Of a stretch of 64,000 nt of DNA, positions 1,015 through 15,596 are shown one piece after another. A program made the translations under genes and the position numbers. This stretch comes from Bacilli bacterium (lineage in GTDB: Bacteria > Bacillota_I > Bacilli_A > RF39 > UBA660), in assembly GCA_017428495.1 (NCBI GenBank), contig JAFRQS010000026.1, positions 8,372 to 72,371 on the forward strand. Reading direction: 5' to 3'. Position 1 is the stretch's first letter. Each line of letters begins with the position of its first letter. Below the pieces are notes generated by a model. That model was not told where the DNA came from, ran no database searches, and saw nothing but the letters and a program-made list of their open reading frames with translations.

Positions 1015-1116
1015 AAAAAAGACTAGTTTTACCTAGTCTTTTTACTACTTATTGTTGATTGCAGCTTGTGCAGCAGTTTACACCAGCAGTCAATTATTAT
1101 TTTAACTAAAATGACT
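1015..1116. repeat. att-like unit A: conserved-stem hairpin (1015-1043) + ppdK 3'-end mimic ttgattgcagcttgtgcagcag (1055-1076) + ACTAAAATGACT (1105-1116)
   Basis: 19-nt identity to ppdK 3' end at 12985-13003. Hairpin stem aaaagactag/ctagtcttt is shared with the units at 1880, 2754, 3388 and 12910. Confidence 0.8.
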
Positions 1117-1118
1117 CT

Positions 1119-1850
1119 TTAATCGAATTCTAATCTCCCTTTTCCTTTATAAAGATATTGTGGAATATTTAGTTTTAATTTTAATTCTTTAACATATCGT
1201 GGTTTAATATTTTCCTCTAATATTCTGCTAATAGCATCTGTTTGATGTTCTGGAACAGGTTCATCTAATGGCATTCCTAATACACACTTATCTTCACTTG
1301 CAGATGGAATAATGCCATGTGCTAACAATTCATTTTCTTTTGTCCAATCATCTTCCAAATCATAAACAGGTAATAATAGTTCTATGCCAAATTCATTTAG
1401 TAATTGCCTATATCCTTCAATAACTTTTGGCTGCTCAATAGAAAATAATTGACTTTTTCTTGCACCTTCGGCAATAAAATGAACATCATTTAATAAACAA
1501 TATCTTATTGCTTCATGATACATAGCACTTCTGCAATTTAGGCATCTGACTTGCGAAATAGTAGTATCACCATATCTACTGCAAAGCTCACTAAATGACA
1601 TATTTGCTATTACTCTTTCATTGTCTCTAAATAGAGGAACCGTTGTAAGTTTTCCTACATATTCAACTATATCTTTACCATATCCATTTTCAAATTTTAT
1701 TGCTCTTTCAACTTCTAAACCAGTTGATATAGAGCAGCCATTATCAAAATGAACTAATAAAACTTTATAACCTTGTGATACCAATCTTGCCATAGATAAT
1801 ATTGAATCTAATCCGCCAGAATACATTAGAAGAACTTTTTTCCTTTCCAT
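1119..1850 (-). CDS. PP-loop ATPase, QueC-like (7-cyano-7-deazaguanine synthase family); cassette cargo
   Basis: N-terminal LLMYSGGLDS PP-loop motif. About 240 aa with a C-terminal Cys pair (CLNCRS). Stop is 2 bp from ACTAAAATGACT. Confidence 0.6.
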   Translation of the reverse strand: MERKKVLLMYSGGLDSILSMARLVSQGYKVLLVHFDNGCSISTGLEVERAIKFENGYGKDIVEYVGKLTTVPLFRDNERVIANMSFSELCSRYGDTTISQVRCLNCRSAMYHEAIRYCLLNDVHFIAEGARKSQLFSIEQPKVIEGYRQLLNEFGIELLLPVYDLEDDWTKENELLAHGIIPSASEDKCVLGMPLDEPVPEHQTDAISRILEENIKPRYVKELKLKLNIPQYLYKGKGRLEFD

Positions 1851-1879
1851 AACCCCACTCCTTGAATAGATTATAACAT

Positions 1880-2116
1880 AAAAAAAGACTAAAATATAAT
1901 AATTCTAGTCTTTCTAAATATAAATATCCATAAATATAGGTTCATTTAATCTATATTTTACATTATTACCACATATTCTTTTAACATCATCAATTGTAAT
2001 AATTATTCTCACTAAGAATATGCTTTCATACTGTTTCATTTTCCTGATTTTTCGTGAAGATGAGCTTGTGCAATTTCCTACTTTGGCAGTCAATTTATAA
2101 ACTCACTAAAATGACT
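1880..2116. repeat. att-like unit B (degenerate): hairpin 1880-1914, core gatgagcttgtgcaatttcc 2058-2077, ACTAAAATGACT 2105-2116
   Basis: Same stem (aaaagacta...ctagtcttt) and agcttgtgca core as the ppdK end. The right-end ACTAAAATGACT is 9 bp from the stop of the next gene. Confidence 0.65.
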
Positions 2117-2126
2117 TATATTTTTA

Positions 2127-2468
2127 TTATTTCTTATTTTTGGGCTTTAATATTTTAGAAAATGCATTTGAACATTTTTCTTTTATTCTAGCTGTTTTTG
2201 GACCAAATCTTTTAGATACGATTGCAACTGACATTACAAATCTAGTATATATTTCTTCAATTTGTTTACATTTGTCCATATAATATTGTTCTGTATCTAT
2301 ATTATTGGCAATTGATTCTTTAACTTCTTGTTCCATTAAAGATAATGGATATTCAAAATATTGAACAATTGTAGAATATAAATGATCAGCTTTACATTTT
2401 TCTATATCTTCTTTTAACAAATTTAATCCTATATAGTATTGTTCTTTAAAAGTTATTTTCTTTTCCAT
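2127..2468 (-). CDS. hypothetical protein (cassette cargo)
   Basis: 113-aa ORF with no recognisable motif. Bracketed by att-like units B and C. Confidence 0.45.
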   Translation of the reverse strand: MEKKITFKEQYYIGLNLLKEDIEKCKADHLYSTIVQYFEYPLSLMEQEVKESIANNIDTEQYYMDKCKQIEEIYTRFVMSVAIVSKRFGPKTARIKEKCSNAFSKILKPKNKK

Positions 2469-2753
2469 ATTTCCTCCTTTTTTATTAATTTCATAGTTTT
2501 AACGCTCTGGAATTATTTGGTTATTTATCGAGCTAACCAATATCACCAAATTGCATTCATAATTTGCTATATATTTCTCATCTGATGACATGACAAAAAC
2601 CTCTATTGCAGTCACATATTATACATCAACTTTTGAAATATATCAAATACTAAATAGAACAACTCTAAATAAGCCAATTATAATCTAATTCCTGTTGGTT
2701 TTCTAAAATACATATATTATCATCCTTTCTTTTTTATATATTTTTTTCCAACA

Positions 2754-2877
2754 AAAAAAGACTATTTCTAGCCTTTCTTGTATTTTATATTTTCATGCTT
2801 TTGCGTTCTAATTATTTCTCGCTTTAATTGCAGCTTGTCACCATGTGAGGTTCGGGCCGATTTAGACTAAAATAACT
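2754..2877. repeat. att-like unit C: hairpin 2754-2778 + ttaattgcagcttgt 2824-2838 + ACTAAAATaACT 2866-2877
   Basis: About 85 bp collinear with 12910-12996 (ccaacaaaaaaagactatttctag...ttaattgcagcttgt), then diverges after cttgt. Confidence 0.8.
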
Positions 2878-2902
2878 TTTTGTCATATGTACAACAATTA
2901 AT

Positions 2903-3361
2903 TTAAATCTTTTTTCTCGCATTATCAATTTGTAATCTGCATTCATTTTCTAATATTCCAATTTCAATATTTAGTTCTGTTTTTGATTTATCTTTAATAT
3001 CAAATATAGTCACATTAGGGTTCATAGTTTCTTCACTTGGAGCACCATATATATAATTTTGTATTTTTGCTTTGATGCATGCAGACATACACATACTACA
3101 ACTCCATGCATTTGACATTATACAATAATCAGATAAATCCATTGTATGAAGTTTCTTGCATGCTTTTGAGATTAAATTAATTTCTGCATGTAAAATAGGA
3201 TTCATCATTGATTTAACAGTATTGTGTGCCTTTTCTATTATATTTCCATTTTTATCAATTAGTATTGCACCAAATGGTGAATTTCCTTCTTTGATTGCTT
3301 CATCTACTTCTTGCATCACTAATCTCATTAATTCTTCTTTTTTCTCTATAGTTAGATTCAT
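2903..3361 (-). CDS. CDA-fold (cytidine/guanine deaminase-like) zinc deaminase; cassette cargo
   Basis: HAEINLI ... CSMCMSAC zinc-binding signature of the cytidine/dCMP deaminase superfamily. About 150 aa, comparable to Bacillus GuaD. Confidence 0.65.
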   Translation of the reverse strand: MNLTIEKKEELMRLVMQEVDEAIKEGNSPFGAILIDKNGNIIEKAHNTVKSMMNPILHAEINLISKACKKLHTMDLSDYCIMSNAWSCSMCMSACIKAKIQNYIYGAPSEETMNPNVTIFDIKDKSKTELNIEIGILENECRLQIDNARKKI

Positions 3362-3387
3362 TCTATCACCTATATAAATTATACCAT

Positions 3388-3527
3388 AAAAAAGACTAGA
3401 TTAGTCATCTAGTCTTAATTACACTTTTTACTTATTTGCCCCAGACTTGATTGCAGCTTGTCAAACCAGATAATTAACTTATCCAATATGGACGCTTAAA
3501 TGTATGATTTTTAAGACTAAAATGACT
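3388..3527. repeat. att-like unit D: hairpin 3388-3416 + ttgattgcagcttgt 3447-3461 + ACTAAAATGACT 3516-3527
   Basis: Same three-part architecture as units A and C. ACTAAAATGACT is 13 bp from the stop of the downstream gene. Confidence 0.8.
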
Positions 3528-3540
3528 TAATTTAATTTTT

Positions 3541-4221
3541 CTATTTAATATTTATTAGATTTTTTACTATTTCTATAAATTGATTCCATCCTATTACTAT
3601 TGTTATAATCACTGAAAGAAAAGTTAAAATACTGATAATACCACTACATAATTTGAATAATACACTATCTTTTACTTTAGATAAACTTTTAGAAGATATT
3701 AATCCCACACTAAATAATATATCAAGAGGGCTTCCTAATATTGCTTTAATACCGCTTGTTAAGTCATATATAGGATTAAATAATCTTCTTATTTCATTTT
3801 TTCTATACTCATCTATTATTCCCATCTTTCTTAAAAAACAATTATGACACCATGTTATTTGATCTCCTTCATATTCAATCAACCCTTTTGCTTTTAAAGA
3901 TAAGACTTCGTTCATGAAATTAATTACTACTTCATAATTTGGATAATGACCTCTACTATCTCTGTAAAGCATTATTCCCGAATCACCTAATATTATTTGT
4001 ATTTTATCACTATTTGACATAAGCCATTCATATTCTTTTGCATTATATTTATCTTTATTCATCAAATCTGAAATAAATTTGCTAAACTTTTCTCTATACT
4101 CATAGATAAAGTTATAATTATCAGACCACTTTCTTATATTTAAAACATTAGTAATAATACCAATTATAATTAGAAAAATTACTGTTAGAATAAAATATAT
4201 CATGGTATGCCTCCTTAACAA
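3541..4221 (-). CDS. membrane protein (N- and C-terminal TM helices), unknown function
   Basis: Hydrophobic segments at residues about 7-28 and about 195-220. Lies immediately downstream of the serine recombinase, co-directional. Confidence 0.45.
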   Translation of the reverse strand: MLRRHTMIYFILTVIFLIIIGIITNVLNIRKWSDNYNFIYEYREKFSKFISDLMNKDKYNAKEYEWLMSNSDKIQIILGDSGIMLYRDSRGHYPNYEVVINFMNEVLSLKAKGLIEYEGDQITWCHNCFLRKMGIIDEYRKNEIRRLFNPIYDLTSGIKAILGSPLDILFSVGLISSKSLSKVKDSVLFKLCSGIISILTFLSVIITIVIGWNQFIEIVKNLINIK

Positions 4222-4250
4222 TATATTATACCATTTTATTCTAAAATAGC

Positions 4251-5876
4251 TTAATCTAATTTGTGTTCTACGATAAAATAATCTTGTTTTTTTCCTTTCA
4301 CTTCTAAATTAATTGGTTCCTTTAAAAATACTAATTTCCATTCGAACCAATCTTTATGTACTGTTATTTTTTCTACTACCTCCTCTATTAATAAATCATT
4401 AATTCCATTGTAATTAAAATCTAATAATCTTCTAACACTTTGTTTAGCTTTTTCAATTTTAACTTCAGGTGGATCTAATCTTTTTAATTCTTTTTCTAAA
4501 TCTTCTATTTCTAATTTATATAATTCTATTTTATCAGATAGTTTCTTTTGAAAAGATTCATAATCATTTGAATTAACTTTCTTATCTAAATATAAATTCA
4601 ATAATCTATCTAATTTAGTAGATTCTTCTTTTATTAATTTATTATATCTTTTTATTTCACTATTTAATTCATCAGCTTCATGTGTATCTATTTTTATACC
4701 ATTAAGTAGTATTAGTTCTAATTCTATTCTGTTGTGATCATCTTCAACAAGATTTCTAAATATAAACTCAGCCATTTTTTCAAGTTTCCATTCCTGTACT
4801 TCTTTAACTTCACAATATTTATAACCATATTCATACTTCCCACCCTTGGGATGAGTTTTTCTATTATAGCATGCATAGGCATATGTTTTACCTTTGTTAG
4901 TTGTGTGATCTTTTCTTCTATTAAATGTTGAACCACATTCACAAATCATTTTCTTGCTCCAAACATATTTAGGTACTCCAATTGCTGTCCTATCACCTGA
5001 TGGTGATGGTTTAGAGTGTCTATCTAATATAGCTTGTACTTTATCAAAATCTTCTTTTGAAATAATAGGTTCATGTGTACCTTCAACAACTATTTGTTCT
5101 ATCTCTCCTCTATTCTTTTTAGCTTTTTGCTCAAGATAATCTGGAATATATTGTTTGTTATAAACTATTGTTCCAGCATAGAATTGATTTCTTAATACAC
5201 GAGTTATATAAGCCGCATTCCATCTATTTAGTCCAGTTGATGTCTTATAACCCTTCCTTTCTAAGTCTTTTGCTATAGTAGTAGTTCCTACACCATTTAG
5301 ATATTTTTTAAATATATATCGAACTATATCTGCTTGGTCTTGATTAACTATCATAGTATTCTTATTAATTTTGTCATATCCAAGAATATTTCCTGAACCC
5401 ATGAAAATTCCATTCATGAATGCTATTCTTAAACCTGCTTTTACTCTTTGAGAAGTTTTCTTACTCTCATTTTGAGCTAGTGTTGCCATTATAGTGAGCT
5501 TTAATTCTCCATCATCATCCTTAAATGTCCATATATTATCTTCAGTAAAATATACTTCAACACCAATCTTTTTTAGTTTTCTTGTTTCTTGTAATGTATC
5601 AACTGTATTTCTAGCAAATCTTGATACTTCACGAGTAATAATTAAATCAAATTTACCTTCATGGGCATCTTTCATCATTCTTATAAAATTCTTTCTTTTC
5701 TTAATAGAAGTTCCTGTAATACCTTCATCTATATATCTATCATATAGAATCCAATTAGGATGTTTATCTAAAATATCATCATAGTACTGAACTTGATTAT
5801 CTAATGCTGACAATTGAGCTTCATGTTCAGTAGATACACGAGCATATATAGCAACCTTCCTATTCATTTTCATCAC
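4251..5876 (-). CDS. large serine recombinase (resolvase/invertase N-domain + recombinase domain + zinc ribbon + coiled coil)
   Basis: VAIYARVSTEHEAQLSALDNQ with the catalytic Ser region, RFARN and a Cys cluster (CECGS...CYNRK...YCE). 541 aa, typical of phage/ICE-type serine integrases. Confidence 0.85.
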   Translation of the reverse strand: MMKMNRKVAIYARVSTEHEAQLSALDNQVQYYDDILDKHPNWILYDRYIDEGITGTSIKKRKNFIRMMKDAHEGKFDLIITREVSRFARNTVDTLQETRKLKKIGVEVYFTEDNIWTFKDDDGELKLTIMATLAQNESKKTSQRVKAGLRIAFMNGIFMGSGNILGYDKINKNTMIVNQDQADIVRYIFKKYLNGVGTTTIAKDLERKGYKTSTGLNRWNAAYITRVLRNQFYAGTIVYNKQYIPDYLEQKAKKNRGEIEQIVVEGTHEPIISKEDFDKVQAILDRHSKPSPSGDRTAIGVPKYVWSKKMICECGSTFNRRKDHTTNKGKTYAYACYNRKTHPKGGKYEYGYKYCEVKEVQEWKLEKMAEFIFRNLVEDDHNRIELELILLNGIKIDTHEADELNSEIKRYNKLIKEESTKLDRLLNLYLDKKVNSNDYESFQKKLSDKIELYKLEIEDLEKELKRLDPPEVKIEKAKQSVRRLLDFNYNGINDLLIEEVVEKITVHKDWFEWKLVFLKEPINLEVKGKKQDYFIVEHKLD

Positions 5877-5980
5877 CTCTACTAAAAATTAACATTTTTA
5901 TAAGAATTTGTTTACTGTGCGATTTTTACATAAGAAAAAGAAGTATTTCTACTTCTTTCATCACACATTTGACAATTATT

Positions 5981-6292
5981 CTATTCTTCAGCAGCTATAT
6001 CCTTATACTTATCGATTACCTCTTGCATCTCACTGTTGATTTCTTGCACCAATACAGGCTTATTTTGAACAAACGTTTTTAATTGCCCATATATATTACT
6101 ATAAATAAGTTTTTCAACGTCACTTGCAATTTCAACGCCTTCAATATATTCATCTAATACTATCTCTTCCTCATCATATATTTTTTGTAAAATTTCATAT
6201 ATATCTTCTTTAGCAATATCAGATATAGGTTTAAAATCCACTCCATCTTTGCTAAAATAGCACTTTTTATTTTCAATTTTTAAAAGTTTCAT
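5981..6292 (-). CDS. small acidic protein, partner of the PHP-ATPase (translationally coupled)
   Basis: Start MKLLKIEN at 6292 with RBS AAAGGAGAAATATAT upstream. Overlaps the upstream gene's stop (6273) by 20 bp. Confidence 0.5.
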   Translation of the reverse strand: MKLLKIENKKCYFSKDGVDFKPISDIAKEDIYEILQKIYDEEEIVLDEYIEGVEIASDVEKLIYSNIYGQLKTFVQNKPVLVQEINSEMQEVIDKYKDIAAEE

Positions 6293-8306
6293 ATATATTT
6301 CTCCTTTCATCATATGCTTCACTACCTGCTTCCATAACTTCCATTATAGTGTCATAACTCATTATTGAATCATTATTAACTGTTGATAATGTTTTACTAC
6401 CAAATTCTCCAGTATAAACCTTAAACACATTATCTTCGTTAGCTGTATAAATCAATTTATTAGGTTTCATTAACATTCCCAATGAATTATTATGTGTAGA
6501 TATAAATACAGTAGTTTTATTAGATAATTCTTTTATTATCTCTATTATATAATCCTTTATAAATGGATTATCAAATGATGCTTCTGGTTCATCTAATAAT
6601 AATATATCATAACTTTCAGAGCCTTTAATCTCCCGTAACAAATTGTATTCAGCTCTTTCTCCTCCAGATAATTCATTACCATTCTCATTTATTACCTTAA
6701 CTTTAAATGATAATATTGCTTTGTAAACCGTGCTTCTGTCGATTCCAGCATTTACTAATTCTTTAATAAATTTAAATGGATTGGTATTATAGTTAGAATT
6801 AAAATATGAACTAATTCCTGTTCTTGTCGAAAGTTCGTGTTTTACTTCATCTGCATTATTAAATTTATCTTTCTCAACAATAAGTTTAAAACGATACACA
6901 TCTAATTCACAAATATTTTTCTTTGTTTTTAGTCTTGATACCAATTCATTATATTTATTAACTAAAATTAATTCTTTACTAGCTTTGTAAAGATTAACCT
7001 CACTTATATTTATCATTGAGGATTTTGTTGTTAATTTATCCTTAATTATAGTTACTATATTATCAGTGCTTTGCTTTAACTTATATTCTAAATACTCTTT
7101 TCTTCTCCTAGCAATTAAATCATTTATTAAACTTACAATTTGCTTTTTATCTAAATATTTTTCAATCAAATCTTTGTTATGATCACTATCAAGAATTACA
7201 GTTAACGCATTTACTATTTTTTTAGTATCATAATTATCTAAAAAATCAAACTTAATTTCATTGAATAGTTTAGTTTTTGAATATGAATCTTGTAAAGATT
7301 GATTTGTAGCAAACTCTTTTAGACTTGATAAATAATTATCTATTTTATTTAATTCTTCATTATTAATATCTAAAATTGTATCAGTTAGTTTTCTAAGTGG
7401 TTCTAAATAATTAGAAATGATTCTTTGTTGTTCATCTTTAACAAGTTCCTTAAACTTGCTTTCTTCACTTTTACCAGTCAAAGAGAATTGAGGAATATAT
7501 TTGATATTCTCACTTTTATTATCCTTTGAACTATAAATGTGTTCCAAATTATAAGTTTTTCCAGATGATCTCTTTCCTATAATTACATTTAATTTTGTTG
7601 AAGCAGTTGTACCATCTGGTAAATATGAAAATTCATCTGCTTTTTTATTTTCAGAGATAAAAACCTTATTTTTATCTGATAAAGCTTGTTTTAATACGCC
7701 AAACTCTGTTGAATTTATGTCTACGAAAGTGCTTTTTGATGGAAAGCTATATATTCCTTCTTCATTTTTATATGAATCCTCCATTCGAATATCGCTAAAG
7801 AAAACAGGTGAATAAAAAGTATCCTCTTTTTTTGTACTTTCAAATTTTTTTGCACTTTTTACTTCACCAACATTTATAATATTACCAAATTTTTCAATTG
7901 TGGTACTTTTCATTGATGGCTCTTTCTTTATGTGGGGGATTAAAATATAATCTCTGTAGTTTGGAAATATTCTAATAAATTCTTCATAACTAATTGAATC
8001 ATTAGCATTGTGTATGGAATTATTTAATAAAACGCATGAATTATTCAATTCTTCAACTCTATCTATTGAGGCAATAGCTAACATATGAGATGATTCAATA
8101 TCAATTTCTACCCCTGGTAATACAACACAGTTTAATTTGTTAACGATTGTTTCAAATTGATCTTTATCAAAATGATTATGATTAGTTATTGATATTATAT
8201 CTAATTTATTGATGTCAACATACTTTTCTAATGCATCGATTGAAAAATCAAATGATCTTTCAAAATTACTTGGTGATGTGTGTATATGTAAATCTATTTT
8301 TTTCAA
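6273..8306 (-). CDS. PHP-domain phosphoesterase fused to SMC/ABC-type ATPase (Walker A, coiled coil, LSGG signature, Walker B, H-loop)
   Basis: N-terminal IDLHIHTSPS...ITNHNHFD (PHP). GKRSSGKT (Walker A). About 300 aa helical region. LSGGERAEYNLL signature. ILLLDEPEASFD (Walker B). ISTHN (H-loop). Likely TTG start at 8306 preceded by an in-frame stop and a GGAG RBS. Confidence 0.7.
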   Translation of the reverse strand: MKKIDLHIHTSPSNFERSFDFSIDALEKYVDINKLDIISITNHNHFDKDQFETIVNKLNCVVLPGVEIDIESSHMLAIASIDRVEELNNSCVLLNNSIHNANDSISYEEFIRIFPNYRDYILIPHIKKEPSMKSTTIEKFGNIINVGEVKSAKKFESTKKEDTFYSPVFFSDIRMEDSYKNEEGIYSFPSKSTFVDINSTEFGVLKQALSDKNKVFISENKKADEFSYLPDGTTASTKLNVIIGKRSSGKTYNLEHIYSSKDNKSENIKYIPQFSLTGKSEESKFKELVKDEQQRIISNYLEPLRKLTDTILDINNEELNKIDNYLSSLKEFATNQSLQDSYSKTKLFNEIKFDFLDNYDTKKIVNALTVILDSDHNKDLIEKYLDKKQIVSLINDLIARRRKEYLEYKLKQSTDNIVTIIKDKLTTKSSMINISEVNLYKASKELILVNKYNELVSRLKTKKNICELDVYRFKLIVEKDKFNNADEVKHELSTRTGISSYFNSNYNTNPFKFIKELVNAGIDRSTVYKAILSFKVKVINENGNELSGGERAEYNLLREIKGSESYDILLLDEPEASFDNPFIKDYIIEIIKELSNKTTVFISTHNNSLGMLMKPNKLIYTANEDNVFKVYTGEFGSKTLSTVNNDSIMSYDTIMEVMEAGSEAYDERRNIYETFKN

Positions 8307-8361
8307 CTATCTCATCTCCACTTCAACAATTATTATAACATAAAACAGGAAGCTTAACTTC

Positions 8362-8565
8362 CTATTTTATTCCCCTTGGATTCCAATCCATACCTATATT
8401 TTCAAGTAATTCTATTTTTTCTTTTGATAATTTATTCTTTTTATAAGTACCTCTTTGAGTTCCTATCCATCTACCTAATTGTATTTTATCTATAGTTGTA
8501 TATCGAAACGGAATTAATAAATTTCCTTTTTCTTTATAATATTGTTCAGCAAGTTTATAAATATA
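8362..8565 (-). pseudogene. remnant of a helicase-associated (HA) domain gene
   Basis: 57-codon frame with no start: ...KLAEQYYKEKGNLLIPFRYTTIDKIQLGRWIGTQRGTYKKNKLSKEKIELLENIGMDWNPRGIK*. Matches the G.W...QR..YK.GKLS.E....L...G..W HA-domain pattern. Stop codon lies just upstream in frame. Confidence 0.5.
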
Positions 8566-8625
8566 TTATTTCAATGGTTACTCTCCATAAAATTTCTTCT
8601 CACTTGTTGTTATTATATCATGAAA

Positions 8626-8652
8626 AAAGCAGATTTTTTCATCTGCTTTAGA
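8626..8652. terminator. hairpin aaaaaagcagattttttcatctgcttt (second copy at 10562-10589)
   Basis: Perfect inverted repeat (gcagat/atctgc) flanked by A/T runs. A near-identical copy lies 1.9 kb away. Confidence 0.55.
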
Positions 8653-8677
8653 ATGCACAATATCTTAATCTTCCGAT

Positions 8678-9607
8678 CTAATCTATTTTTAATTTAAATG
8701 AATACCAAGCAGTTCCACGATCACATATTGTATCAATTAACACTACATATTCCCCTTTTAAATTAGGAACTGTAAAATTATTTTTTTCATAAGTAATAGG
8801 AATATCTACTTTTTCATATTTTGAATCATAAAAGGTAATTCTAGTTATAGTTAAATCACTAGAGGAATCTAGAGCAATAATATCCTCTTTATTACTTGGC
8901 AAATATTCATCATAATTAATATCTTCTAAAGGAATTGACAAGCCACATGAACTTGCTTTATCTTCTCCTTTAGTATCAGTAATACAATATGAGCCAATTT
9001 GTGTAAGATTTCTATCTTTACCATTAATTACCCACAAATTTCTTGGTGTTGGATTAAATACTTCAACATCCCAAGTAAATAGCCAAAAGCCAAATTTAAT
9101 ATTAATACTATTACTTAATGGCTCATTAGGTGAAATACTTACTTCTTTTTTCATTTTATAACCAAATCCCAAATAAGTATAATTATTTCCATTTTCACGA
9201 ATTGGTATCATAAACAATGGATTTTCATTATGCCTTACACGATTATAATCAGTCCAAAATGTATAAATAAAGAACAATAGCAGGAAAGCAACTACAGATA
9301 TAATTATAATTCTTTTAATTTTTTTAATCCTATTTGTTGAATATTTTATTGTATTATTTAATACTTCATCAGTTTTTTCTTTTAATTCACTTTCTTTTAT
9401 TCTTTCACCACTCAATAATTCATTTAAAGATATATCAAGTATTTCACATAGCGGTTTATAAAAAACTATATCTGGCATTCTTCTACCATTTTCCCAGTTA
9501 CCAATAGCTCGATCTGTTACATTTAATTTATCTGCAAGTTCTTGTTGTGTCATCTTTTTTTCTTTACGAATTTTAGCAATAAATTTTCCAATTTTTTCTT
9601 GATTCAT
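8678..9607 (-). CDS. membrane-tethered XRE-family HTH regulator (HTH - TM - extracytoplasmic domain)
   Basis: N-terminal MTQQELADKLNVTDRAIGNWENGRRMPD (Cro/C1 HTH). TM at about 100-120. Confidence 0.7.
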   Translation of the reverse strand: MNQEKIGKFIAKIRKEKKMTQQELADKLNVTDRAIGNWENGRRMPDIVFYKPLCEILDISLNELLSGERIKESELKEKTDEVLNNTIKYSTNRIKKIKRIIIISVVAFLLLFFIYTFWTDYNRVRHNENPLFMIPIRENGNNYTYLGFGYKMKKEVSISPNEPLSNSINIKFGFWLFTWDVEVFNPTPRNLWVINGKDRNLTQIGSYCITDTKGEDKASSCGLSIPLEDINYDEYLPSNKEDIIALDSSSDLTITRITFYDSKYEKVDIPITYEKNNFTVPNLKGEYVVLIDTICDRGTAWYSFKLKID

Positions 9608-9746
9608 AGTTTTTGCTCCTTTCGTATTTAATTATAGATTGCATTTCTAAAAAAGTATCCAAACAATCCGTAGGGTTTCATATATCTATATTTTATCACA
9701 AAAAAAGAGAATTCTTTAATTCTCCTAATAACCATTATTTGAATAG

Positions 9747-10469
9747 TTATTTTTCATATAACAATACTGATTTATTTATATATTCATCTAGTTGCTTTTT
9801 TGATATGTTTTTAATATTATTTATATTTGAATCAATATAATATATTTTTATTTTCTTAGTCTCTTTGTCGTTGATAGTTATGGGATAGTATCTATAACTA
9901 TTTCCGTTATAAATAGATTTCTTAACTATTTCATTATAAGAACATTTAGAATTCAAAAATATAATCTCATAATCATTATCATCCATTATAGAGTATTGAT
10001 TAATGTTGCCACTATAGACGGTACATAAATCTTTTGTGGTAAAAAATAATTGATTATCTCTTTCTTCAACATACATCCTATTTTCATCATAGTTTAAAAT
10101 TACTTTATGATTTCCAACAAGTATTAATGTTAAAACAACAATAACTATTATTGATACTAAAACAATAATTGTTCTTCTTATTCGTGTAATTTTAGTATTT
10201 ACATTTGATATAACGGAAAAAACATTTTCTTCTAACTTTTCTTGGTATGAATTTTTTTCTACCTTTTCACCACTTAACAAATCATTTATTGTAATATTTA
10301 ATTCATTACACAACGGTTTAAAAAAAGATACATCAGGAAAATTCTTACCATTTTCCCAATTTGATATAGCTCTATCTGTTACACCTAATTTTTCAGCTAA
10401 TTCACTTTGAGTAATTTTATTATCTTTACGACATTTAGCTATAAACTTTCCTATTTTAATTTGATCCAT
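9747..10469 (-). CDS. membrane-tethered XRE-family HTH regulator, paralog of 8678..9607
   Basis: ITQSELAEKLGVTDRAISNWENGKNFPD HTH followed by a TM segment. N-terminal region nearly identical to its neighbour. Confidence 0.7.
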   Translation of the reverse strand: MDQIKIGKFIAKCRKDNKITQSELAEKLGVTDRAISNWENGKNFPDVSFFKPLCNELNITINDLLSGEKVEKNSYQEKLEENVFSVISNVNTKITRIRRTIIVLVSIIVIVVLTLILVGNHKVILNYDENRMYVEERDNQLFFTTKDLCTVYSGNINQYSIMDDNDYEIIFLNSKCSYNEIVKKSIYNGNSYRYYPITINDKETKKIKIYYIDSNINNIKNISKKQLDEYINKSVLLYEK

Positions 10470-10613
10470 TTTATTTCTCCTTTCTAGATTTAGAATACTA
10501 TGGCTTATAAAAAAATAACACGAAGTGTTGCTTGAGTTTTTAATATTATTATTTTATCACAAAAAAAGCAGATTTTTTTCATCTGCTTGATTATTAATTT
10601 TATAAGAATTCTA

Positions 10614-10934
10614 CTATGAAACCCATGACCACAGTCTTATTCCATAGAATAAATAAAATTCTTTCCCCATAACCTTAACCATTTTATTATCGTCTGAAGA
10701 ATCTTCTGACATATAATACTTTACTTTTATTTTATAGCCAAGGCTAAAATATTCAAAATCTATTTCTTCACCAGGTTCTAAACATGATATACAATATTTT
10801 GTCCTATCCAAAACTATTAATGGTTTACTACTATCATTAATTTTTAATCTTATACTTTCTTCTGTAATAAATAAAGCAAATATTCCTATAATTACTATTA
10901 ATATTATTCTTATTATTTTAAATACTTTCTTCAT
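10614..10934 (-). CDS. small membrane-anchored protein
   Basis: N-terminal hydrophobic anchor, 106 aa. Confidence 0.35.
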   Translation of the reverse strand: MKKVFKIIRIILIVIIGIFALFITEESIRLKINDSSKPLIVLDRTKYCISCLEPGEEIDFEYFSLGYKIKVKYYMSEDSSDDNKMVKVMGKEFYLFYGIRLWSWVS

Positions 10935-10945
10935 CTAAACACCTT

Positions 10946-12121
10946 TTATTTCTTTATTAATACATCAGGATAGTCATCAGCAATTTTATCAGCTGATATT
11001 AAGTTGGTTTCTAATGCAGACTTAAGAGTCATAACCTTATTATCAATCATAAACTTAATCATTACTTTATCACTCTTAATGCAACTTAAATAGTATTTAT
11101 GTCCATTATTTTCATAGATTTGTTCTAATGCTGTAGCACAAGTTTCGTCTGGATCAGAATAGTCTAAAATGCTATAGAAAATATAATCTGTTTCATTCTC
11201 AATTATTTTTCTCAAATCTGTTCCATTTGATATTGAATAATAACAACTATTTATACTTTCTGGTAGAATTCTCTTTCCATCACCCCATACTTGTATCGTT
11301 TCAATTAGTTTTTTATCATCATACATTTTAAACTCAAATCCATGTCCATCACTTAAACAATATTCACCATATCTGTTTGCACTTGATATTGCATTTAATA
11401 TTTCCTTTATTTTATTCGAATCTTTTATTACACCTAATTCTTTATCACCAGCATTAATTATTATTTTATTAGTTTTATCTATTTTTTTAATAATATTGGA
11501 TGGTATAGATTTACTTTGTTTTTCACTATTATTAGTTACACATTTATTAGTTAAGTCTTCCATATCAATATCGTTATTTTCAGTATGAACATAAATAATA
11601 GGAATTACTGGGCTTGAGAATGTTTGGTATGTAGTAAACCTTTTACTAAAGTATTCATCAAAAACATTCATTACTTCTGATTCATAAGTTCCATTTTTAG
11701 GGAAAATAATAAAATACATATTGTCTTTATGTTTACTAGCATATTTACCTTTAAATATATCAATTTTATCTTTATTAACATTTTTTATTTCAGATAATTG
11801 TATTTCAATTAAATCATCTTGTTCTGTTACTAAATATCCACCTAATTCATTTTCTAAACAAGATACAAGTTTATTCATGTCTTGTTCTGCTTCAACATAG
11901 GTATTTATTTCTCCGGCAACATGAAATCCTAGTATTTTAAGTTCCCATCCGTCTTCATATCCAGTTGATGAGGTCTGACTTATTCTGTGTATTTTAGTAT
12001 ATTTATATAAAACAGCTTTATATTCTGTAGATCCTCCATCCCATAATCTGTCTTTAATTGGAATAAGCATTAAGATAAAAATTGCAATTATAACAATAAT
12101 AATTATTTTTTTCTTTTTCAT
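10946..12121 (-). CDS. membrane-anchored extracytoplasmic protein, unknown function
   Basis: N-terminal KKKK plus hydrophobic anchor. 391 aa. Confidence 0.4.
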   Translation of the reverse strand: MKKKKIIIIVIIAIFILMLIPIKDRLWDGGSTEYKAVLYKYTKIHRISQTSSTGYEDGWELKILGFHVAGEINTYVEAEQDMNKLVSCLENELGGYLVTEQDDLIEIQLSEIKNVNKDKIDIFKGKYASKHKDNMYFIIFPKNGTYESEVMNVFDEYFSKRFTTYQTFSSPVIPIIYVHTENNDIDMEDLTNKCVTNNSEKQSKSIPSNIIKKIDKTNKIIINAGDKELGVIKDSNKIKEILNAISSANRYGEYCLSDGHGFEFKMYDDKKLIETIQVWGDGKRILPESINSCYYSISNGTDLRKIIENETDYIFYSILDYSDPDETCATALEQIYENNGHKYYLSCIKSDKVMIKFMIDNKVMTLKSALETNLISADKIADDYPDVLIKK

Positions 12122-12213
12122 AGTTCCTCCTATATCTTTATTATACTACATAATTATTAAATATTATCATCAACTTAAATCATCGTAATATTACTATTTT
12201 TCGAACAAAGGAA

Positions 12214-12681
12214 TTAGCTATATAAATTATAGTTTAATTTCCATTCAATATATTCTTGATCTGATATTTCACCTTTCATTCTTCTTTCTCTCATTTCTCC
12301 CCATTCTTCTAATCCTCTTATAATATCTTCATTGTAATATGTCTTTTTCATTGCATCTTTGTCGAAAATATATTCACTATAAGGGCTTAGTTCTTCTTCC
12401 CACATATGATAATAAATAACTTCATTAGGGTCTACAAAATTATATCTTCTTATTGCATAGTTACTTACATCAAATAATTCTGCTAAATCTTCTAATCTTT
12501 CTGGTTGTGGTTCTCTAGCATTTCTTTCATATTTATCTATGCTATCTGTTGGTTTTTCACCTCCTAACTCTAAAAACTCTGCTACATTTGGCTTAGACAT
12601 ATATCTTAGCTCCCTTACAAATTTTAGTCTTGCGCCTTGACTAAGATTCTCCAATTCAGGTTTAAAAAAATAATTTTTCAT
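12214..12681 (-). CDS. XRE-like HTH domain protein
   Basis: ARLKFVRELRYMSKPNVAEFLELGG ... LEDLAELFDVSNYAI resembles an HTH_3 domain. Located at the ppdK-proximal end of the island. Confidence 0.4.
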   Translation of the reverse strand: MKNYFFKPELENLSQGARLKFVRELRYMSKPNVAEFLELGGEKPTDSIDKYERNAREPQPERLEDLAELFDVSNYAIRRYNFVDPNEVIYYHMWEEELSPYSEYIFDKDAMKKTYYNEDIIRGLEEWGEMRERRMKGEISDQEYIEWKLNYNLYS

Positions 12682-12721
12682 AAATATACCTCCTATCTTA
12701 TTTTTTTATTCCATTAAAAAA

Positions 12722-12760
12722 GCTAGTACTTAATACTAGCCAACTCCTTTTTTATTCTTT
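12722..12760. terminator. bidirectional terminator hairpin gctagtacttaatactagc
   Basis: Perfect 7-bp stem flanked by A-run and T-run. Confidence 0.5.
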
Positions 12761-12909
12761 TTAACTTTTGCTCTCCATATTTGGACTACAAGAAATGCAA
12801 CCCGAGTTTTATTGTCACTATACTATGCCATTTAGAACCACCTCTTTTCCAATTTTTAATAATTTTCACTTAAATATTTATGATTACCCCCAAACCCTTT
12901 TAATCCCAA

Positions 12910-12996
12910 CAAAAAAAGACTATTTCTAGTCTTTTCATTTTATTACTTTGGTACGTTTAAACGTCCTATTTTTGATTCGCCTTAATTGCAGCTTGT
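12910..12996. repeat. ppdK-proximal att-like unit: terminator hairpin 12910-12935 + ttaattgcagcttgt 12982-12996 (current ppdK 3' end)
   Basis: Template for units A-D. The core overlaps the last 9 codons of ppdK. Confidence 0.8.
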
Positions 12997-15596
12997 GCAG
13001 CAGCAAGTCTAGCAAGTGGTACTCTATATGGTGAACATGATACATAATCTAGTCCTACATTATGACAGAACTCTACTGATGATGGTTCTCCACCATGTTC
13101 TCCACATATACCTAAATGTAAATCTGGTCTTGTACTTCTTCCTAATTCAGCAGCCATTTTTACAAGTTTACCAACACCTATTTGATCTAATTTAGCAAAT
13201 GGATCTTGTTCATAAATATTATTCTTATAGTAATCACCTAAGAATTTAGATGCATCATCTCTTGAGAATCCAAATGTCATCTGTGTTAAATCATTTGTAC
13301 CAAATGAGAAGAATTCTGCTTCTTTTGCTATATCATCTGCTGTAAGTGCTGCTCTTGGTATTTCTATCATAGTACCAACTTTATATTTTAATTCTACTCC
13401 AGCATTTTTAATTATTTCATCTGCAGTTTTAACTACTATATCTTTAACAAATTTTAATTCCTTAACCTCTCCTACTAGCGGAATCATTATTTCAGGTTCT
13501 ACATTTAATCCTTCTTTATTAACATTAATTGCTGCTTCAATTACAGCTCTTGTTTGCATTTTTGCTATTTCTGGATATGTAACAGCAAGTCTACATCCTC
13601 TATGTCCCATCATTGGGTTAAATTCTTTTAATGATTCAACTCTTTTCTTCAATGATTCAAAACTCATACCTAAACTCTTTGCAAGTGGTTTAATTTCTTC
13701 ATCTGTATGTGGTAAGAATTCATGTAGAGGTGGATCTAAGTAACGAATAGTTACTGAATATGGAGCCATTGCTTTAAATAATCCTTCAAAGTCACTTCTT
13801 TGATATGGAAGAATCTTTTCAAGTGCTTCTTCCCTTTGTTCAATAGTTTCTGCTGCTATCATTCTTCTAAAATTAAATATTCTATCTTCTTCAAAGAACA
13901 TATGCTCTGTTCTACATAAACCAATACCTTCTGCGCCAAATTTTCTTGCTTGAATAGCATCTTTAGGCGTATCAGCATTTGTTCTTACTTTTAATCTTCT
14001 AACACTATCAGCCCAATTCATAAATGTTTCAAAGTCTCCACTTATTTCTGGTTCAACTGTTTTAATTTGTTCACCATAAACATTACCAGTTGATCCATCT
14101 AAACTCATGAAGTCTCCTTCATGGAATACTAATCCATCCTTTGTTGTAAGAGTTTTTTCTTCTTCACTAATTGTTAATTCACCACAACCAGATACACAGC
14201 AAGTTCCCATACCTCTTGCTACTACTGCAGCATGTGATGTCATACCACCTCTTATAGTAAGTACACCATTAGCATAGTTCATACCTTCTATATCTTCTGG
14301 ACTAGTTTCTAATCTTACTAATAATAAGTCTTTCTCACCAGATTCTTTAGCTTTAACTACATCTTCAGCTGTAAAGTAAATTTTACCAGTTGCTGCACCT
14401 GGAGATGCTGCTAAACCTTTAGCTATTACTTTACCATTCTTTAATGCTTCAGAATCAAACATTGGATGTAATAATTGATCTAATTGTTTTGGTTCAACTC
14501 TTAAAAGTGCTTCTTCTTTAGTAAGCATACCTTCAGATACAAGATCTACTGCCACTTTAAGTGCTGCTGCTGCAGTTCTTTTACCATTTCTAGTTTGTAG
14601 CATAAATAATTTGCCATTTTCTATAGTAAATTCCATATCTTGCATATCTTTATAATGATTTTCTAATAAATTAGCAATTCTTACAAATTCAGAATATACT
14701 TCTGGCATATCACTTTCTAGTTTACTTATTGGTTCTGGTGTTCTTATACCTGCAACAACATCTTCACCTTGTGCATTTATTAAATATTCACCATATAATT
14801 TCTTTTCACCAGTAGCAGGGTTTCTTGTAAATGCAACACCTGTTCCACAATCATTACCACGGTTTCCATATACCATTTCCTGAACATTAACAGCTGTTCC
14901 CCAATCACTTGGTATATCATTTAATCTTCTATATACTATAGCTCTTTCATTCATCCATGATCTAAATACTGCCTTAACTGCTTCTATTAATTGTACTTTT
15001 GGATCTTGTGGGAATTCTTCACCAGCAAGTTCTTTATAATTTTCTTTAAATCTTAGTGTAACCTCTTCCATATCATCTGCTGTAAGTTCAAGGTCACTCT
15101 TAACTCCTTTTTCTTCTTTTATTTTATCGAAATATCTTTCAAATGATGATTTTGGATATCCTTTAACTACATCTGCAAACATTTGAATAAATCTTCTATA
15201 AGAATCATATGCAAATCTTTTATTATTTGTAGCTTCTGCAAATCCTTTTGCAACTTCATCATTTAAACCTAGATTTAAAACTGTATCCATCATACCAGGC
15301 ATTGATGCTCTTGCACCACTTCTTACTGATACAAGTAATGGATTATTTAAATCTCCCATCTTCTTTCCTGTTTTAGCTTCTAATTCAGCAAGTTTAGTAA
15401 ATATTTCATCTTCTATATCTTTACCAATTTCCTTACCATTATCATAATATCTTGTACAAGCTTCTGTTGTAACTGTAAATCCTCTTGGTACAGGCATACC
15501 TATATTAGTCATTTCTGCTAAGTTAGCACCCTTACCACCAAGTAGATTTCTCATGTCTTTACTACCTTCTTCAAAGGCATAAACGTATTTTCCCAT
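12966..15596 (-). CDS. ppdK: pyruvate, phosphate dikinase
   Basis: 876 aa. N-terminal GKYVYAFEEG...LLGGKGANLAEM. Central phospho-His domain (GGMTSHAAVVARGMG). C-terminal PEP-utilising domain. Confidence 0.9.
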   Translation of the reverse strand: MGKYVYAFEEGSKDMRNLLGGKGANLAEMTNIGMPVPRGFTVTTEACTRYYDNGKEIGKDIEDEIFTKLAELEAKTGKKMGDLNNPLLVSVRSGARASMPGMMDTVLNLGLNDEVAKGFAEATNNKRFAYDSYRRFIQMFADVVKGYPKSSFERYFDKIKEEKGVKSDLELTADDMEEVTLRFKENYKELAGEEFPQDPKVQLIEAVKAVFRSWMNERAIVYRRLNDIPSDWGTAVNVQEMVYGNRGNDCGTGVAFTRNPATGEKKLYGEYLINAQGEDVVAGIRTPEPISKLESDMPEVYSEFVRIANLLENHYKDMQDMEFTIENGKLFMLQTRNGKRTAAAALKVAVDLVSEGMLTKEEALLRVEPKQLDQLLHPMFDSEALKNGKVIAKGLAASPGAATGKIYFTAEDVVKAKESGEKDLLLVRLETSPEDIEGMNYANGVLTIRGGMTSHAAVVARGMGTCCVSGCGELTISEEEKTLTTKDGLVFHEGDFMSLDGSTGNVYGEQIKTVEPEISGDFETFMNWADSVRRLKVRTNADTPKDAIQARKFGAEGIGLCRTEHMFFEEDRIFNFRRMIAAETIEQREEALEKILPYQRSDFEGLFKAMAPYSVTIRYLDPPLHEFLPHTDEEIKPLAKSLGMSFESLKKRVESLKEFNPMMGHRGCRLAVTYPEIAKMQTRAVIEAAINVNKEGLNVEPEIMIPLVGEVKELKFVKDIVVKTADEIIKNAGVELKYKVGTMIEIPRAALTADDIAKEAEFFSFGTNDLTQMTFGFSRDDASKFLGDYYKNNIYEQDPFAKLDQIGVGKLVKMAAELGRSTRPDLHLGICGEHGGEPSSVEFCHNVGLDYVSCSPYRVPLARLAAAQAAIKANQK

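Follow-up and report, generated by a model that had tools for sequence, protein, structure and literature searches.

Ppl is a validated single-gene defence system in which an ATPase is combined with a polymerase/histidinol-phosphatase (PHP) domain (PplA; Gao et al. 2020, as described in PMC11482910). The ATPase of Ppl belongs to the ABC class (bioRxiv 10.1101/2024.01.29.577857), and the system gives protection against phages such as T7 (PMC11482910). The candidate system PDC-M49 was defined from the cassettes FAM_00021>>FAM_01695 and FAM_00021>>FAM_02682, embedded in known defence systems, and is one of 145 candidates stated as untested (Payne et al. 2024 and its supplement, bioRxiv 10.1101/2024.01.29.577857). 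Here, we describe a pair of overlapping genes, A and B, in a 64,000-nucleotide stretch of DNA from a Bacilli bacterium (assembly GCA_017428495.1, contig JAFRQS010000026.1, positions 8,372 to 72,371; hereafter the window). An initial annotation, made from the sequence alone, had taken the pair for a candidate defence module. On its profile matches, the locus is a member of the PADLOC-DB v2 phage defence candidate PDC-M49. With somewhat better than even confidence, we read the pair as a two-gene anti-phage or anti-invading-DNA module within the wider Ppl/TrlF group of PHP-ABC proteins, which would work as an ATP-gated PHP nuclease regulated by B.

The family assignment is based on a PADLOC hidden Markov model (HMM) scan, in which both proteins gave full-length matches. 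The PDC-M49A model (PDLC04680) matched residues 1-677 of A over profile positions 1-674 with an E-value of 4.4e-188, and the PDC-M49B model (PDLC04682) matched residues 1-97 of B over profile positions 1-95 with an E-value of 4e-18. The order and strand of the two genes agree with PDC-M49, and nothing structural differs. The earlier proposal of a candidate defence module accords with the candidate status of PDC-M49 and with the variable contexts, rich in restriction-modification (R-M) genes, in which its members are found. The accompanying statement that the domain combination matches no named defence system did not hold, as PADLOC already lists PDC-M49 and a PHP domain joined to an ABC ATPase is the architecture of Ppl. 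The pair is already catalogued and a standard PADLOC run would have labelled it, and the practical result for the window is modest. A full-text literature search for 'PDC-M49' returned no paper mentioning the name, and full-text searches for TrlF and for Ppl together with PHP and ABC ATPase returned no paper describing the PDC-M49 family. Three additions of the present analysis were not encountered in the literature consulted, namely the relationship of PDC-M49A to Ppl/TrlF, the strict coupling of A and B, and a proposed hotspot for integration at the 3' end of the gene for pyruvate phosphate dikinase (PPDK).

In protein A, an N-terminal PHP fold of the metal-phosphoesterase type and a complete SMC-like ABC ATPase are joined in one chain, an architecture that had been proposed for the 677-residue product and that was borne out by the AlphaFold2 (AF2) model, Foldseek, Pfam matches of homologues and invariant motifs. 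All motifs quoted in the initial annotation are present in the translation: HIHTSPS, TNHNHFD, GKRSSGKT, LSGGERAEY (residues 546-554), LLLDEPEASFD and THN (604-606) are invariant in 42 homologues, as is the complete ATPase set (Walker A G244-K250-T251, Q-loop Q273, signature S547-G-G-E550, Walker B D572-E573 with its catalytic Glu, D-loop D579 and H-loop H605). ABC ATPases with the full motif set form ATP-sandwich dimers. Since the ATPase motifs of A are all invariant, its ATPase is predicted to be active and to form such dimers. The PHP residues of metal-ligand type, H7, H9, H43, E67, H74, H125 and D172, are likewise invariant or nearly so.

The AF2 model of A, built on the 42 homologues, reached a pLDDT of 86.8. 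Foldseek matched it to the heads of SMC, JetC, RecN, Rad50 and MukB and to TM0559, and the fold searches recovered both an ABC head fold with a helical insertion and a PHP fold. The insertion comprises about 250 residues, is basic (isoelectric point (pI) 8.9), and contains helices at 280-312, 317-338, 387-428 and 439-459 in the model. EndoQ was the nearest structural neighbour of the PHP domain, and the PHP domains of PolX/PolIII and RNase AM were also among the nearest; EndoQ is a PHP-domain lesion-specific DNA endonuclease that shows only 11% sequence identity and has no ATPase. This structural proximity to EndoQ, as seen in the model, would be a further addition of the present analysis. Sequence searches with the window protein itself were less informative: Pfam returned no match to PHP (PF02811) and only a sub-threshold match to ABC_tran, a PDB sequence search returned weak ABC transporter matches and no PHP protein, and profile-based searching of the PDB with the N-terminal domain yielded only RNase AM, at E 0.62. 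Pfam scans of the 42 homologues identified PHP in 23 (best E 3.7e-8), AAA_21 in 34 and SMC_N in 10.

A total of 1294 homologues of A, of about 670 residues, were collected, and clustering of the family at 50% identity gave 2804 representatives (E<=1e-3). Of the 150 best-scoring representatives, nearly all are 660-705 residues long. One cluster representative of 763 residues, P0249, aligns only from profile position 202 onward, and a 290-residue N-terminus with a weak ABC-2 membrane match replaces its PHP domain, which could reflect an effector swap or a gene-calling fusion.

Protein A carries its PHP domain and ABC ATPase in a single polypeptide, as Ppl does, and the likeness to Ppl/TrlF extends to the order of the parts, namely N-terminal PHP domain, Walker A, helical insertion, signature/Walker B/H-loop, and a tail of the form MEGG/MEAG...RR..Y. 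An 873-residue Escherichia coli plasmid protein annotated as TrlF scored best against the Ppl model of PADLOC (2e-36) and second best against PDC-M49A (2e-17), the latter over TrlF residues 13-101. A BLASTP comparison of A with this protein aligned the N-termini with an E-value of 4e-6, covering the unusual PHP motifs HxHT, ITNHNxFD and PGVE that are common to A and Ppl/TrlF. The C-termini aligned with an E-value of 3e-13 across the signature, Walker B, the H-loop and the tail, where VMEAG.EAY.ERR.IYE of A faces VMEGGREAFERRREVY of TrlF. In hhalign, the C-terminal 120-131 columns were matched with 97-98% probability (97.8%, E 7e-13, for 131 columns), and the NCBIfam TrlF profile (NF045780) matched A in part, residues 263-606 against profile positions 544-884. 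The central region of the two proteins is not alignable and their termini are similar in the same order; full-length homology is therefore deduced from collinearity. We conclude from these sequence comparisons that PDC-M49A is a compact, distant homologue of the Ppl/TrlF proteins, shorter by about 200-270 residues (677 versus 873-944).

While Ppl is described as a single gene, A has a partner of about 100 residues in 98 of 99 loci. TrlF/Ppl-type genes with an overlapping 387-residue Schlafen/AlbA_2 plus HATPase_c_4 gene were observed on a Klebsiella IncC plasmid (L102, 2766-6550) and on a Yersinia ruckeri plasmid (L103, 2817-6571), and in Klebsiella a type I R-M system surrounds the two genes, with hsdR on one side and hsdS/hsdM on the other. 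Some Ppl relatives are therefore also two-gene modules, with a different partner.

Because B evolves fast and a word-based search with it found only 7 relatives, its occurrence was examined with an HMM of B at 99 loci carrying an A homologue (33-99% identity to A), taken from genome, metagenome and plasmid sequences and from two IMG/VR contigs. The 98 B homologues all lie directly downstream of A and overlap its 3' end by at least 20 nucleotides, and the sole locus without B has just 66 nucleotides of sequence beyond A. Hence, B is an obligatory partner of A whose gene always overlaps the end of A. In the window the overlap is exactly 20 nucleotides, with the TGA stop of A at 6273-6275. The small partner had been described as an acidic, translationally coupled protein with a strong ribosome-binding site, all of which stood (pI 4.43, net charge -11.5); its length was corrected from 104 to 103 residues plus the stop codon. 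B diverges faster than A. Its model (pLDDT 86.5) shows a three-stranded sheet, one helix and a further helix of 44 residues. Pfam and NCBIfam scans assigned B to no family, and no counterpart of B was found within TrlF. A Bacilli metagenome-assembled genome (RGIG1841; L003, 10001-10657) holds only the last 154 residues of A together with B, at 76% identity, and this copy looks like a truncated remnant of an A-B pair.

The pair travels on islands, transposons and plasmids and adjoins R-M systems. A scan of genome contigs with A as single query found 3 close relatives only, and in the closest of these (L001, 91% identity) a DpnII R-M system lies immediately upstream of the pair. A 43%-identical homologue is carried by a Tn4451-like mobilisable transposon (large serine recombinase, Mob_Pre, TnpV), right after a HinP1I R-M pair; another is found in an integrase/TnpV/NikA island, and a third between two large serine recombinases near HinfI R-M. 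Type I hsdR and hsdM follow directly downstream on an IMG/VR contig, and on Enterococcus faecalis rep9a plasmids the pair has a small recombinase on either side, with an Abi protein and a RelE toxin-antitoxin pair nearby. Matches were found in 215 plasmid records, with full-length coverage in 53 of these, and came mostly from Enterococcus and Staphylococcus. The mobility enzymes near the pair include large serine recombinases, tyrosine integrases, small resolvases and a Mu-type transposase.

The nearest neighbours of 55 non-redundant loci (149 genes) were tallied by Pfam family, of which 126 were encountered in total. The commonest were methylases (C5 6, N6 5, Eco57I 4, N6_N4 2), Resolvase (5), AAA_21 (4), integrase (3) and Fic (3). 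The homologues are not in conserved housekeeping operons, a placement that would have spoken against the earlier defence proposal; they lie in variable contexts rich in R-M genes and recombinases. A DUF4238 protein gene follows the serine recombinase in L001 (14075-15007), and DUF4238 accounts for 2 of the 149 neighbours. We also considered a phage-borne origin of the pair and rejected it, as the phage genome collection contained no homologue and IMG/VR had one on 2 contigs only.

If the pair is an ATP-gated PHP nuclease regulated by B, A would dimerise via ATP sandwiched by Walker A and the LSGGE signature, and its basic helical insertion would touch a phage trigger or nucleic acid. By binding or hydrolysing ATP, A would license its N-terminal PHP domain as a nuclease whose substrate is most likely DNA, an activity proposed because the nearest structural neighbours of the domain, EndoQ, PolX/PolIII PHP and RNase AM, are nucleases. 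The acidic B would be made in a fixed ratio with A, would probably dock by its long helix on the helical insertion of A, and would act as a regulator, either a safety catch or a sensor. The outcome would be degradation of the invader DNA or abortive infection. A bolder version of this mechanism, which we regard as a long shot, holds that B is a dedicated sensor or safety catch and that the fused PHP endonuclease, in the manner of EndoQ, reads a chemical feature of the invader DNA (deaminated, uracil-containing or otherwise modified bases, or ends) and not its sequence, by a mechanism unlike that of other ABC-ATPase defences. If this were true, solving PDC-M49 would also explain Ppl.

Several points weigh against the assignment of the pair to defence and against its proposed mechanism. 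The defence role of PDC-M49 is one that we infer from genomic context and from distant homology to Ppl, and the mechanism of Ppl is itself not known (PMC11482910). The PADLOC Ppl model gave no match to A when each half was searched to E<=10, and the score of A against the NCBIfam TrlF model was 66.4 bits versus a cut-off of 350. In the PHP domain, the canonical final DxH reads D172-x-R174 with an invariant arginine, and one motif-I histidine is absent; with R174 in place of the last canonical histidine, the metal site is, as judged from these motifs, non-canonical. The ligands were mapped by motif order and not by superposition, following the general pattern of PHP motifs. A PDB structural search with the model of B returned no fold match, and the role given to B is therefore a guess. 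The neighbour tally is descriptive and has no matched background, and the immediate upstream neighbours of A in the window are XRE-type membrane proteins, not defence genes.

The most serious of the other explanations is that of an addiction or stability module resembling a toxin-antitoxin system, in which A would be a toxic ATP-dependent nuclease, B its labile acidic antitoxin, and stabilisation of mobile elements the main function. The constant presence of the pair on mobile DNA, whether plasmids, a Tn4451-like transposon or recombinase islands, accords with this idea, as do the strict coupling of a small acidic partner to A and the many homologues that match Pfam AAA_21 ('putative AbiEii toxin'). 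However, the gene of B lies downstream of a large gene that it overlaps, and B lacks the kind of DNA-binding domain that antitoxins typically use for autoregulation. B is missing from the relatives Ppl and TrlF, and the repeated direct adjacency to R-M genes fits defence islands. We consider an addiction module unlikely on this evidence, and note that toxin-antitoxin-like and abortive-infection roles are not mutually exclusive.

Processing of DNA ends or hairpins in the manner of SbcCD/Mre11-Rad50, for repair or for the excision, integration or replication of an element, is suggested by an SMC-like ABC head with intervening helices joined to a metal-dependent phosphoesterase nuclease, by the Rad50, RecN and SMC heads among the structural matches, by the use of the PHP fold as a repair nuclease in EndoQ and PolX, and by the recombinase that adjoins the pair. 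In SbcCD/Mre11-Rad50, however, the nuclease is separate and of the calcineurin fold, whereas in A it is an N-terminal fusion of the PHP fold. The insertion of A is short (about 250 residues), with neither a zinc hook nor a long coiled coil, and the distribution of A-B is sporadic, accessory and mobile, not core. Moreover, the pair occurs with unrelated mobility enzymes, and its Ppl/TrlF relatives are found inside R-M systems without a recombinase; the pair is therefore not tied to one mobility mechanism. Such a processing role is accordingly improbable in our view. A Wadjet-like anti-plasmid system, in which small circular DNA would be detected by the SMC-like ATPase through loop extrusion and cut by the PHP domain, is highly improbable even with JetC chains as the top Foldseek matches (E ~5e-6), given that their TM-scores are low (0.13-0.14) and reflect the head only, that loop extrusion would need a far longer coiled coil, that no kleisin, KITE or JetD-like genes to make up a JetA/JetB/JetD set were found by PADLOC and Pfam, and that the pair itself is common on plasmids.

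The reading of the pair as a two-gene defence module also invites comparison with OLD, Gabija (GajA), PARIS (AriA/AriB), Septu (PtuA/B), Lamassu (LmuB) and HEC-01 to HEC-04, which have in common with it the general logic of an ABC ATPase with remodelled insertions and a nucleic-acid-cleaving effector (bioRxiv 10.1101/2024.01.29.577857). In A the effector is a PHP domain, whereas those systems use TOPRIM, HNH, NERD, PIN or Cap4, and B is not a nuclease. The specific closeness to OLD, Septu, Lamassu and Gabija ATPases that had been proposed earlier could not be upheld: none of the OLD, Gabija, PARIS, Septu, Lamassu and HEC ATPases was among the top 50-60 structural matches, and in PADLOC only weak matches of A to AriA, HEC-02A and mad3 were seen. 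PADLOC and Pfam found no TOPRIM domain, sought as the fused or partner nuclease of OLD, Gabija and PARIS, in A, B or their neighbours.

If PDC-M49 protects its hosts, a widespread two-gene system would be added to the known defence repertoire; the family occurs in gut Bacillota and on plasmids of Enterococcus and Staphylococcus. In addition, the compact pair of a 677-residue A and a 103-residue B may be a more tractable model than the 870-940-residue Ppl/TrlF proteins, and its study could reveal how an ABC ATPase gates a PHP nuclease.

The features of the locus are collected in Table 1. The window is AT-rich, with about 26% G+C, and its minus strand holds nearly all genes. The TTG start of A has a GGAG 9 nucleotides upstream, and the N-terminus that it defines, MKKIDLHIH, coincides with the N-termini of all homologues. 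The element TGTTATAAT upstream of this start may be a promoter of A's own and is preceded by a palindromic hairpin at 8347-8363; a promoter scan gave no information in the AT-rich window (42 sites versus 45.6 expected). A terminator had been placed after the pair at 5925-5950. A hairpin was indeed found, at ~5936-5959; it is A/U-rich with an imperfect U-tail, and the consensus terminator scan made no call. Between the upstream XRE gene and A, and followed by the palindromic hairpin, lies a 67-codon frame without a start codon (8365-8565, minus strand) with a Pfam helicase-associated (HA) match (E 1e-16), which probably remains from a larger gene that was deleted.

Table 1. Coordinates of the A-B pair, its protein features and the surrounding island, in window numbering.
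Feature	Position	Strand	Basis and remarks
Gene A, PHP-ABC ATPase fusion (PDC-M49A), 677 aa	6273..8306	minus	Open reading frame, TTG start, PADLOC, AF2
PHP phosphoesterase domain, residues 1 to ~230	7617..8306	minus	Conserved H7, H9, N42-H43-N44, E67, H74, H125, D172, R174
Walker A / P-loop GKRSSGKT, residues 244-251	7554..7577	minus	Translation; G244, R246, S247, G249, K250, T251 invariant
Helical, short coiled-coil-like insertion between ABC head halves, residues ~280-530	6717..7469	minus	AF2 secondary structure
C-terminal ABC half-head: LSGGE 546-550, LLLDE 568-573, D-loop SFD, H-loop H605	6492..6671	minus	
Family-specific C-terminal tail VMEAGxEAYxERRxIYE, residues ~650-677	6276..6359	minus	M658, E659, A660, Y665 invariant; common to TrlF/Ppl-type proteins
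Gene B, acidic partner (PDC-M49B), 103 aa + stop	5981..6292	minus	ATG at 6292, PADLOC, model
Shine-Dalgarno AAAGGAG for B, within 3' end of A	6301..6307	minus	Sequence; 8 nt before ATG
Extended -10-like element TGTTATAAT	8332..8340	minus	Sequence; 26 nt upstream of TTG of A
Terminator-like hairpin after B	5930..5964 (hairpin ~5936-5959)	minus	-10.7 kcal/mol, z = -3.17 vs shuffles
Large serine recombinase	4251..5876	minus	Pfam Resolvase, Recombinase, Zn_ribbon_recom; immediately downstream of A-B
Att-like core TTAATTGCAGCTTGTGCAG, true 3' end of PPDK gene	12982..13000		Direct-repeat families D2, D3 and alignment; proposed island boundary
Second copy of PPDK-3'-end core	3447..3465		Repeats and alignment; proposed other boundary
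Older 98-nt copy (72% identity), PPDK terminator and 3' end	2741..2838		Repeat D2, alignment
Outermost copy of PPDK-3'-end core	1055..1073		Direct repeats

The mobile-island setting next to a recombinase, noted at the outset, was confirmed by the large serine recombinase and by repeats of the PPDK end. The recombinase gave distant NCBIfam matches to CcrB, CcrC and XisF and is 81% identical in nucleotide sequence to the recombinase at the equivalent position in L001. The 3' end of the PPDK gene is present in four copies in direct orientation, some with its terminator. The core sequence reads TT[A/G]ATTGCAGCTTGT, and three copies were found at <=3 mismatches versus 0.005 expected by chance. From these repeats, we infer that site-specific integration may have occurred repeatedly at the PPDK 3' end and that the A-B island would span about 3466-12981, or about 9.5 kb; the direct copies suggest a tandem array of islands integrated there. 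No empty PPDK 3' integration site was found, and there is no tRNA gene near the island. In the segments 1074-2740 and 2839-3446, genes for a PP-loop (QueC/ThiI-like) ATPase, a 113-residue protein of unknown type and a cytidine/tRNA-type deaminase were observed, with no PADLOC match.

The genes of the island are, in order, a helix-turn-helix (HTH) gene, two unknowns, two paralogous XRE-type membrane proteins, the helicase-associated fragment, A, B, the large serine recombinase and a membrane protein. A PADLOC scan of the other island genes (1119-4221 and 10614-12121) gave no matches. The XRE paralogues lie at 8678-9607 and 9747-10469 on the minus strand, and in each an XRE-type HTH at the N-terminus is accompanied by an apparent hydrophobic membrane segment; their 5' 240 nucleotides are 71% identical (repeat D1), and their PADLOC matches (HTH_VI, RmrA) are confined to the HTH region.

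The assemblies L001 and L022 keep the frame of PPDK and HTH gene followed, beyond an intervening segment, by A, B and the recombinase. Three different cargos occupy the slot between HTH and A in the three related genomes, that of L001 being the DpnII R-M system, and the interval from HTH to A behaves as a variable slot. The cargo in L022 (865-2526) encodes a protein of 553 residues in which the DUF4379 treble-clef zinc finger is repeated six times and which shows a weak match to REase_MTES_1575.

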